Of a stretch of DNA of 64,000 nt, positions 2,784 to 5,326 are shown one piece after another (within the stretch, counting starts at the first letter, position 1; every line of letters starts with the position of its first letter). The translations under genes and the position numbers were made by a program. The stretch is from Chiloscyllium plagiosum. Lineage: Eukaryota. Location: positions 15,309,726-15,373,725 of the forward strand of contig NC_057749.1 of assembly GCF_004010195.1 (NCBI RefSeq). The letters are read 5' to 3'. The notes beneath the pieces were generated by a model. That model was not told the origin of the DNA and made no database searches. It saw only the letters and a program-made list of their open reading frames with translations.

Positions 2784-5326
2784 ATTTAGCTTTATTGTCA
2801 TGTGCGCTCGAATGAGTGGAGTGAAAAGTTTACAATGTTGCCGCTATGGCGTCCATCTTAGGTACAAGATACGGAGGTGCATATACTTAATTTTATGGTA
2901 CAAAATTGAAAGAATAATAAATAAAAGTTCAGCATAAGAATAAAGATGAAATAACTACTCAATTCATCATCCATTCACCCCAGTCTGTGACGGCACCGAG
3001 CCTCTGGGCCAAGTCTCCAGACAAAGCTGGGCTTCAAAACTCGACTTCTTGCCTTCAATACACAACAGCCTCGCCTTCCTGCGACGGCCTCTGGTCCAGG
3101 ACTCACCTACAGGACTCACTTCCAAAGATATCGGTCCGGAACTCAACTTCAGCTCTCACCTCATGTGCTCACATCCGGTCTGGGAATTGATCCCACTGCA
3201 AGTCTCCAATTCGGGAATCGCCACAGGTCCAGGAATTGCCTCCCCGTACTAGCCTCAGGTCTGAGACTCGTCTCCTCACACCGGCCTCCAGTCTGGGACT
3301 CGCCTCCACATACCAGCCTGCGGTCTGGGACTCGCCTTCCCGTACCAGCCTCCAGTCTGGGACTCGCCTTCCCATACCAGCCTGCGGTCTGGGACTCGCC
3401 TTCCCGTACCGGCCTCCAGTCTGGGACTCGCCTCCACATACCAGCCTGCGGTCTGGGACTCGCCTTCCCGTACCAGCCTCCAGTCTGGGACTTGCCTCCA
3501 CATACCAGCCTGCGGTCTGGGACTCGCCTTCCCGTACCAGCCTCCAGTCTGGGACTCGCCTCCACATACCAGATTGCAGTCTGTGACTCATCTTCCCGTG
3601 CCAGCCTCCAGTCTGGGACTCGCCTCCACATACCAGCCTCCAGTCTGGGACTCGCCTCCACATACCAGACTGCGGTCTGGGACTCGCCTCCACATACCAG
3701 CCTCCAGTCTGGGACTCGCCTCCACATACCAGATTGTGGTCAGGGACTCGCCTTCCCGTACTAGCCTCCAGTCTGGGACTTGCCTCCACATACCAGCCTG
3801 CGGTCTGGGACTCGCCTTCCCGTACCAGCCTCCAGTCTGGGACTCGCCTCCACATACCAGTCTCCTGTCTGGGACTCGCCTTCCCGTACCAGCCTGCGGT
3901 CTGGGACTCGCCTCCACATACCAGCCTGCGGTCTGGGACTCGCCTTCCCGTACCAGCCTCCAGTCTGTGACTCGCCTCCACATACCAGCCTGCGGTCTGG
4001 GACTCGCCTTCCCGTACCAGCCTCCAGTCTGGGACTCGCCTCCACATACCAGCCTGCGGTCTGGGACTCGCCTCCACCTACCAGATTGTGGTCAGGGACT
4101 CGCCTTCCCGTGCCAGCCTCCAGTCTGGACTCGCTTCCACATACCAAACTGCGGCCTGGGACTCGCCTTCCCGTACCAGCCTCCAGTCTGGGACTCGCCT
4201 TCCCGTACCAGCCTGCGGTCTGGGACTCGCCTCCACATACCAGCCTGCGGTCTGGGACTCGCCTTCCCGTACCAGCCTCCAGTCTGTGACTCGCCTCCAC
4301 ATACCAGCCTGCGGTCTGGGACTCGCCTTCCCGTACCAGCCTCCAGTCTGGGACTCGCCTCCACATACCAGCCTGCGGTCTGGGACTCGCCTTCCCGTAC
4401 CAGCCTCCAGTCTGGGACTCGCCTCCACATACCAGCCTGCGGTCTGGGACTCGCCTCCACCTACCAGATTGTGGTCAGGGACTCGCCTTCCCGTGCCAGC
4501 CTCCAGTCTGGACTCGCTTCCACATACCAAACTGCGGTCTGGGACTCGCCTTCCCGTACCAGCCTCCAGTCTGGGACTCGCCTCCACATACCAGCCTGCG
4601 GTCTGGGACTCGTCTTCCCGTACCAGCCTCCAGTCTGGGACTCGTCTTCCCGTACCAGCCTCCAGTCTGGGACTCGCCTTCCCGTACCAGCCTCCAGTCT
4701 GGGACTCGCCTCCACATACCAGCCTGCGGTCTGGGACTCGTCTTCCCGTACCAGCCTCCAGTCTGGGACTCGCCTCCACATACCAGATTGCGGTCTGTGA
4801 CTCATCTTCCCGTGGCCAGCCTCCAGTCTGGGACTCGCCTCCACATACCAGATTGCGGTCTGAGACTCGCCTTCCCGTACCAGCCTCTGGTCTGGGACTC
4901 ACCTTACCGTACCAGCATCTGGTCTGCGACTCACCTCTCTGTACCGGCCTTTGATCTGAAACTTGCCTTTCCGTACCGGCCTCTGGTCTGCGACTCACCT
5001 CCCTGTACCGGCGTCCGGTCTGGGACTTGCCTCCCCACGCCAGCCTCCAGTCTGGGACTCGTGTCACCGCACCAGACTCCGATATGAGATTTGCTTCCCT
5101 GCGCCAGTCTCTGGTCTGGGAATCACGTCCCTGCACCAGCCTCCAATCTGGGAATCACCTCCCTGTGCCAGTCTCCAGTCCAGAATTCAAGTCCTCCATT
5201 TCCCTCTGAGTAAATTTAAGAAGTTAAAAAAGACTCAAGAAAACAGAAAAACGAAGAGAAGAAAAAGAATGGGCAGAGCAGATGCGGTCTGAATGGAACA
5301 TCCTACTCTGCCGCCATCTTGTTTCC
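2784..5326 (-). mobile_element. Non-coding, VNTR-containing retroposon with Rex1-like 3' tail (element A)
   Basis: Minus-strand 5' end GGAAACAAGATGGCGG; 3' end ...CTTTTCACTCCACTCATTCGAGCGCACATGACAATAAAGCTAAAT; possible 5-bp TSD caatg (2779-2783 / 5327-5331); the tail aligns with 62419-62491. Confidence 0.65.
3190..5180. repeat. Minisatellite, 32-bp unit with two main variants
   Basis: Units ccagcctccagtctgggactcgcctccacata and ccagcctgcggtctgggactcgccttcccgta; homogeneous about 3280-4870 and degenerate at both edges. Confidence 0.95.

Follow-up and report, generated by a model that had tools for sequence, protein, structure and literature searches.

The question raised by this locus is whether a large 32-bp minisatellite is a local tandem repeat or the internal part of a mobile element and, in the latter case, what kind of element carries it. 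The window, i.e. the whole stretch of 64,000 nucleotides that was analysed, is vertebrate DNA containing many LINE remnants. A preliminary description had placed the array on the minus strand between a 5' head and a 3' tail, and the array and both flanking strings were all recovered in this arrangement. Element 1, as the unit is termed here, is a real, multicopy, non-coding, Rex1-tailed retroposon with a minisatellite and a defined 5' end, and the VNTR-carrying non-autonomous family which had been proposed stands on these same properties.

Limits, dispersal and coding content of element 1

The 5' limit of element 1 was drawn from the loose ends of contigs at 5321 and its 3' limit from the alignment of its tail (Table 1). 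The 5' end had initially been set at 5326; the sequence common to the other copies stops at 5321 (5322 in one contig), which leaves GGAAA at 5326-5322 outside the shared end. A caatg target site duplication (TSD) had also been suggested, but CATTG sits 5 nt beyond the shared end and is at chance level: in the TSD control, a 5-mer was common to 15% of pairs of random segments of comparable length.

Table 1. Coordinates of the features discussed (positions refer to the window unless a locus is named)
Feature	Position	Strand	Remarks
Element 1	2784..5321	minus	head, minisatellite, 3' spacer and tail; probably full-length non-coding retroposon, 2.5 kb
5' terminal 12-mer CAAGATGGCGGC, YY1-type	5310..5321	minus	one occurrence in window
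GC-rich 5' hairpin	5272..5312	minus	from fold of 5262-5321
T-rich tract	5215..5271	minus	position like that of the T-rich tract after the start codon in fish Rex1-type LINEs
32-bp minisatellite	3232..5182	minus	~60 units; two alternating interior unit types, diverged edges
3' spacer	2867..3231	minus	decayed units, then AT-rich stretch
Pre-tail block	2831..2866	minus	36 nt, second AAGATGG motif; common to elements 1 and 2
Rex1-type tail	2784..2830	minus	TTTCA, short hairpin, TGACAATAAA, short-repeat remnant; aligned with 3 window and 7 fish tails
Element 2, 5'-truncated sister copy	59850..62515	plus	26-bp array, 290-bp spacer, pre-tail and tail, (ATTC)n end
26-bp array of element 2	59852-62129	plus	87.5 copies
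Pre-tail and tail of element 2	62416-62491	plus	same as element 1
Third copy, tail only	59705..59750	plus	~45 nt; inside the same CR1 remnant
Short Rex1-type 3' end	9690..9935	plus	tail alignment; left boundary by eye
Longer Rex1-type LINE remnant	13937..16517	minus	5' end missing, interrupted by CR1 piece; domain search, tblastn
Rex1-type LINE remnant with tail	37672..38905	plus	5'-truncated; candidate partner clade; tblastn E 1e-41 to 1e-58
Rex1-type LINE remnant	39571..40328	minus	5'-truncated; tail and (AATTC)n end; ALKBH8_N match, tblastn
tRNA-Val	8501-8573
Intermediate-filament gene	31187-32245 (Filament domain) and 48035-50809	plus	924-codon open exon
Hydrophobic stretch regions	L002:111-250, L003:988-1100, L005:140-270, L007:847-990
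Proteins with hydrophobic start			P0012, P0021, P0025, P0033, P0035, P0056, P0097, P0100, P0103, P0119, P0032

Copies elsewhere were sought by comparing positions 5062-5960 with public contigs at a likeness of at least 80%, in three DNA runs from two species (X1 from organism A, X10 and X13 from organism B). Contigs leaving the head at 5321 into unrelated flanks numbered 20, 13 and 10 in the three runs, these counts being lower bounds; the loose ends had a median length of 255 and an agreement of 0.39-0.42. The summed depth in X1, which is not to be equated with copy number, was 141-175 over the head and 794 at the array edge, compared with 4.75 in the single-copy flank. As a repeat, the head is dispersed, and its 5' end is sharp and fixed at 5321. 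A shorter spacer links the head to a 32-bp repeat unit in two contigs from X1 and three from each of X10 and X13; the short side of these joints spans only 21-28 letters, the safe minimum of the method being 30. Three further contigs loop back by about two units, so that the 32-bp unit is also tandem elsewhere. Contigs break at the array and the comparison covered the head side; the links between head and unit and between array and tail were each observed on their own.

The proposal that an empty site might be found in a related shark met with the opposite result, as both runs of organism B carry the head at the orthologous place, with 29-30 differences in 897 bases (3% divergence) from the window. 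The insertion of element 1 at this locus therefore predates the split. In the flank, 5467-5502 and 5721-5793 are two more multicopy pieces, with a loose-end agreement of 0.52-0.58; they probably belong to a diverged repeat of greater age, and element 1 would have been inserted into this repeat or next to it.

The reported lack of reverse transcriptase (RT) coding was borne out: with four full-length Rex1-type proteins as tblastn queries the best match in element 1 had an E-value of 3.6, and element 2 gave none. The two longest array frames belong to no Pfam family, and a protein search with one array frame returned 0 of 8000 candidates at E 0.001. A search of Rfam for ribozymes or known RNAs yielded a single match (E 1, 14 bits against a cut-off of 53.5). 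One read of 12.96 million fell on the head side in one poly(A) single-cell run, of which ~2% was covered, a figure with no bearing either way. A bacterial promoter scan was empty and is irrelevant to the element.

One tail at three lengths

The tail of element 1 had been said to align with that behind the other large array of the window (62419-62491). This was confirmed with 77% identity over 92 nt (E 2e-11), element 1 being taken from 2870 to 2780 on the minus strand and element 2 from 62416 to 62503. A pattern built on the two tails finds only those two, and none of 100 shuffles gives two matches, a result that is circular by construction. The resemblance of the last ~35 nt to the Rex1 LINE tails around 38870-38905, 39575-39610 and 9900-9935 is equally real, and is confined to the last 35-40 nt. 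Comparison with Rex1 3' ends, as had been recommended, aligned ten Rex1-type LINE ends, three from the window and seven from fish. Together with the three tails of the family itself, these 13 sequences display a TTTC-purine start, a hairpin of variable length, a TGACAATAAA-type end and then a short repeat. This agrees with the conserved 3' UTR followed by a short repeat of variable length that is given for Rex1 in the available text of PMC6274825. The closing 3-bp helix is paired in 37 of 39 cells with covariation no higher than in shuffles, RNAalifold produced zero consensus on the 13-tail alignment, and single element tails fold no better than shuffles. AATAAA is present within the tail. No poly(A) tail was seen in the element, which ends in short ATTC-type repeats. 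A gapped tail pattern had 0 matches in metagenome contigs.

The pre-tail block is shared by elements 1 and 2 (p 0.0005), shows a weak likeness to the head (p 0.03) and is absent from the Rex1 tails of the window. When considered as a second Rex1 5' end, it found no match among 10 Rex1 loci at p under 0.06. The spacers of the two elements display a weak likeness to each other (p 0.03).

The flanks of element 2 (59761-59854 and 62516-62587) find their counterparts side by side in a CR1 remnant that is not split (58437-58542 and 58537-58608), both with a score of 44 against shuffle maxima of 36 and 33 (100 shuffles each). Among the other three CR1 references, only one beat its shuffles, on the right flank only. 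Since the flanks map to adjoining CR1 positions, a single 5'-truncated insertion brought in the array together with its spacer and tail. A third copy, which the preliminary description does not mention, resembles the tail of element 2 at 81% over 53 nt (E 4e-9). The same tail is thus found at three lengths within 64 kb. The CR1 remnant (59560-62620) was struck twice by this tail family within ~110 bases, at 59705 and 59850; local target preference or chance are possible explanations.

Kinship of the 32-bp and 26-bp units was rejected (p 0.79). As the units are unrelated, either this tail acquired an array on two or more occasions or tails were exchanged. The absence of a TSD and of an empty site, as well as the unrelated arrays, would accord with chance neighbours, i.e. 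a local minisatellite lying between two unrelated repeat fragments. This explanation is highly improbable: the 32-bp unit exists in multiple copies and adjoins the head at other places, element 2 brought its array and tail in a single insertion, and each of the two large arrays in the window is followed, at a distance of 290-400 bp, by this tail.

Origin of the head and growth of the array

In order to compare the head with complete elements, 27 related loci were obtained from fish-like host DNA in public assemblies by means of the LINE remnants of the window. Four full-length families (L002, L003, L005 and L007) have a single frame of 970-1000 codons, with RVT_1 and ALKBH8_N in all four and an endonuclease family match in three (one below the cut-off); L002 is a 1000-codon endonuclease-RT-ALKBH8_N element. 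We take these families to be Rex1 on the basis of their domain features and of PMC13343379. Rex1 has no ORF1 according to the available part of PMC13343379. In L007:588-860 a repeated 5' subunit was seen by eye, each copy GC-rich then T-rich, like the repeating subunits near the 5' UTR of some ORF1-less CR1-group LINEs in the portion of PMC13343379 at hand. Within the window, the 3' UTR of one Rex1-type remnant contains a 140-bp tandem duplication (38599-38879, 98%).

Such 5' subunits, together with the missing 5' end of element 2, lend some weight to the idea that the arrays belong to the 3' UTR of an autonomous Rex1 subfamily of ordinary type, in which case element 2 would be plainly 5'-truncated, element 1 a one-off internal deletion, and a non-autonomous family would not exist. 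The adjacency of head and unit nevertheless recurs in several contigs, with differing spacer lengths and in two species, as a one-off deletion would not, and the 3' UTRs of eight fish Rex1-type loci followed to their tails contain no GC-rich array by eye. We consider this origin improbable.

The head begins with a YY1-type motif, as had been noted with reference to L1. The motif CAAGATGGCGGC is indeed present and agrees at 11 of 12 bases with the reverse complement of a tested mouse L1 Tf YY1 site (available text of PMC11602158). The L1 analogy is superfluous, the identical 12-mer being found around the first ATG of the full-length fish LINE L002. With this 12-mer marking the ORF start in L002, the simpler origin is a Rex1 with an internal deletion; the exact 12-mer is present in one of the four full-length fish families. 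The T fraction of the head is 0.55-0.70 at 40-100 nt past the ATG. All four fish families likewise have a GC-rich start and then become T-rich, with T peaks of 0.5-0.8 at 40-80 nt.

Other comparisons of the head gave mixed results. Scored with a Rex1 N-terminal profile, its in-frame reading came out at rank 3 of 2577 (p 0.024 when composition was preserved). The same reading ranked 60 (p 0.24) against an independent profile, made of 6 of 28 inspected proteins which were picked for the hydrophobic stretch and motif described below. An unanchored alignment with 10 Rex1 loci did not reach p 0.06. The fold of 5262-5321 has an energy of -24.5 kcal/mol (z -4.35), with 0 of 200 shuffles as stable, and no comparable 5' hairpin signal was obtained in the four fish Rex1 5' regions folded. 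The usual patterns of the Pol III A and B boxes had no match in the head (5180-5321), and no tRNA or Rfam family was detected in it. A Pol II-type element is plausible given this head without A or B box. A Rex1 origin of the head is likely, as suggested by 12 bases and composition, and we hold it to be reasonably probable provided that the family is real.

The array was delineated in two ways. A repeat finder reported 3238-5061 with a period of 32, 57 copies and 80% matches, and cutting by hand gave 60 units between 5150 and 3232, which keep a strict register and are bordered on both sides by decayed ones. The units are 63% GC and the interior contains one 383-bp higher-order duplication. An identical twin exists for 38 of the 49 interior units, and each of the 10 edge units is 3-8 bases away from its nearest neighbour. 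From the twin units inside and the diverged units at the edges, it follows that the array grew and was homogenised in place, at the DNA level, as read from its unit sequences. The earlier suggestion that the family seeds minisatellites is partly upheld: other contigs contain the unit in multiple copies and in tandem, and the array of element 1 itself was homogenised in place.

An alternative source of the head has to be weighed at this point. With the same mobile family and Rex1-type tail, the head might be a captured cellular Pol II start, comprising a YY1 site, a short first exon and a donor, the donor having been amplified into the minisatellite to give an SVA-kind composite. A splice-donor-like 8-mer, AG followed by GTRAGT or GCRAGT as in the donor consensus, is present in 48 array units. 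The GC form occupies 45 units, and the GT form three edge units plus one spacer site; in the other copies, the majority letters correspond to the GT form (depth 592 of 625 at 5154 and 398 of 418 at 5127). The GT 8-mer arises in a shuffled unit in 0.0007 of trials, a post hoc figure. The first donor-like site stands ~165 nt from the 5' end, as where a first exon would end, and the failure of the independent Rex1 profile to recognise the head also fits a captured start. The 12-mer and the T-rich tract are nonetheless placed as in fish Rex1-type elements, and a source gene was not found. Moreover, no donor motif is present in the 26-bp array of element 2, so the motif is not required across the group. 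A captured start is, on balance, unlikely.

Part of this evidence could also enter a broader and still doubtful synthesis, which we offer tentatively. Sharks would have independently evolved VNTR-composite retroposons on a Rex1 chassis, in which several subfamilies share a tail and each grew its own minisatellite. The 32-bp unit would stem from the amplification of a 5' splice donor, placed ~165 nt downstream of a YY1 start so as to mimic a first exon. If true, binding of U1 would boost the RNA or shield it, and with every insertion the genome would gain an array of donors later decaying to the weaker GC form. The family would then also have no precedent in the literature searched, either as a VNTR composite outside hominoids or as a bipartite derivative of Rex1.

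Proposed mechanism and relation to known elements

Our best reading of the family remains that of a non-autonomous Rex1 derivative with a minisatellite that then expands in place, and element 1 is rather probably a full-length copy of such a shark retroposon family, whose copying would depend on a Rex1-clade LINE protein acting in trans. The Rex1-type 3' tail would have been kept as the signal recognised by the reverse transcriptase, the GC-rich segment with the 32-bp tandem repeat would replace the 3-kb reading frame, and the 5' end, most likely Rex1-type, would act as an internal Pol II start at its YY1-type end. The RNA would end at the AATAAA-containing tail. The Rex1 protein would then bind this tail and reverse-transcribe the RNA at a new site, with no clear TSD as a result. 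Target-primed reverse transcription would start at the tail and often halt early, the predicted outcomes being a full-length copy (element 1), a copy cut within the array (element 2) and a bare tail (59705). After insertion, the array would enlarge and homogenise via DNA-level slippage or unequal exchange. The family would comprise at least two subfamilies with one tail and unrelated units of 32 and 26 bp.

Bipartite non-autonomous LINEs are represented by RIME, NARTc, Bov-A and the Vingi-1_EE derivatives (Kojima 2018, PMC5786205, as far as its available text goes). Element 1 is like them in being non-coding, in its LINE-type 3' end, in having no Pol III boxes and in the Pol II transcription that would be expected; their LINE-type 5' end has a probable counterpart in its head. 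It would belong to this class if its head is of Rex1 origin. It is unlike them in that its middle is a 2-kb minisatellite. In the accessible portion of the same paper, the source clades are RTE, Ingi and R2, plus the Vingi derivatives, with 0 occurrences of Rex1 and no use of 'tandem'.

The architecture had been called SVA-like. The SVA, LAVA, PVA and FVA elements are described as hominoid-specific, L1-driven VNTR composites in the available text of Lupan et al. 2015 (PMC4432496) and of PMC5174737. The parallel in layout stands on these sources: in both cases a non-autonomous non-LTR element has a central GC-rich array (units of 30-50 bp, here 32 bp) with distinct edge units, array length changes at the DNA level and 5'-truncated copies occur. 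The head, the poly(A) and the TSD that define the SVA group are missing, and the likeness is an analogy only. Element 1 has no CT hexamer array and no Alu-like head (no Rfam match above chance), nor a poly(A) or a TSD; its tail is a sequence-specific Rex1-type end, as opposed to the poly(A) used by L1 in the SVA group. Since VNTR composites are described as hominoid-specific, the likeness appears to have arisen independently, by convergence and not by kinship.

Element 1 shares with Rex1/Babar a conserved 3' end with a variable short repeat, frequent 5' truncation and the start motif of L002 (available parts of PMC6274825 and PMC13343379). It differs in having no endonuclease/RT frame, an extra 36-nt pre-tail block and a tail hairpin longer than those of the Rex1 remnants of the window.

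RSg-1 belongs to the Rex1 clade. SINEs paired with Rex1-type LINEs comprise SINE2-5_NV with Rex1-24_NV, and the salmonid SlmI, Hpa I and OS-SINE1 with RSg-1, in the excerpt available of PMC3747384. Like them, element 1 is non-autonomous with a borrowed Rex1-type tail. Their heads are tRNA- or 5S-derived and of the Pol III type, whereas element 1 has no A or B box, no Rfam match and a length of 2.5 kb. It is generally well known that mobile elements may carry minisatellites (accessible part of PMC6947457).

No description of the shark family was found in the literature searched, a scope beyond which lie Repbase, Dfam, subscription journals and supplements. If the family does combine both designs, bipartite LINE and VNTR composite, it would show that a LINE whose tail is recognised by its sequence can give rise to an SVA layout. 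The family would also be a possible origin of the GC-rich minisatellites dispersed in shark genomes, and would lend itself as a natural experiment on the role of the central repeat in retrotransposition. It is of interest mainly to transposon specialists and no host function is indicated.

Several observations were made on the Rex1-type proteins themselves. The ORF starts with a signal-peptide-like hydrophobic stretch, followed by a Y-x-R-x-x-L-L motif and a basic run. This stretch is the most hydrophobic 15-residue window in the four fetched families, and 11 of 28 inspected relatives reach a hydrophobicity of at least 1.9, one of them a limpet protein. Neither a literature search nor a term search of PMC7846101 found a mention of a hydrophobic Rex1 start. 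Rex1 is the CR1-group LINE most often transferred horizontally, according to the accessible part of PMC13343379, and a membrane or secretory route could bear on this frequency. Two scans of viral contigs found 0 loci with a Rex1 protein. A fragment of a vertebrate-type Rex1 LINE (L027) is found in a contig of a Clostridia metagenome-assembled genome (JARHYK010000036.1), where it is most likely host contamination. In a TRIM35-like isoform of Chiloscyllium plagiosum (P0003, AHA43052.1), a stretch is 77% identical to the C-terminus of the Rex1-type RT of the window, which suggests an exonised LINE piece; this match also points to a shark origin of the window.

As to the setting, no Pfam family indicative of a host gene was detected in the 52 of 86 open pieces scanned at positions 1-9000. 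The segment 7800-8600, adjoining the tRNA-Val gene, is CpG-rich (observed/expected 1.04) and may be a promoter. Further along, the window contains an intermediate-filament gene, which we take to resemble synemin.
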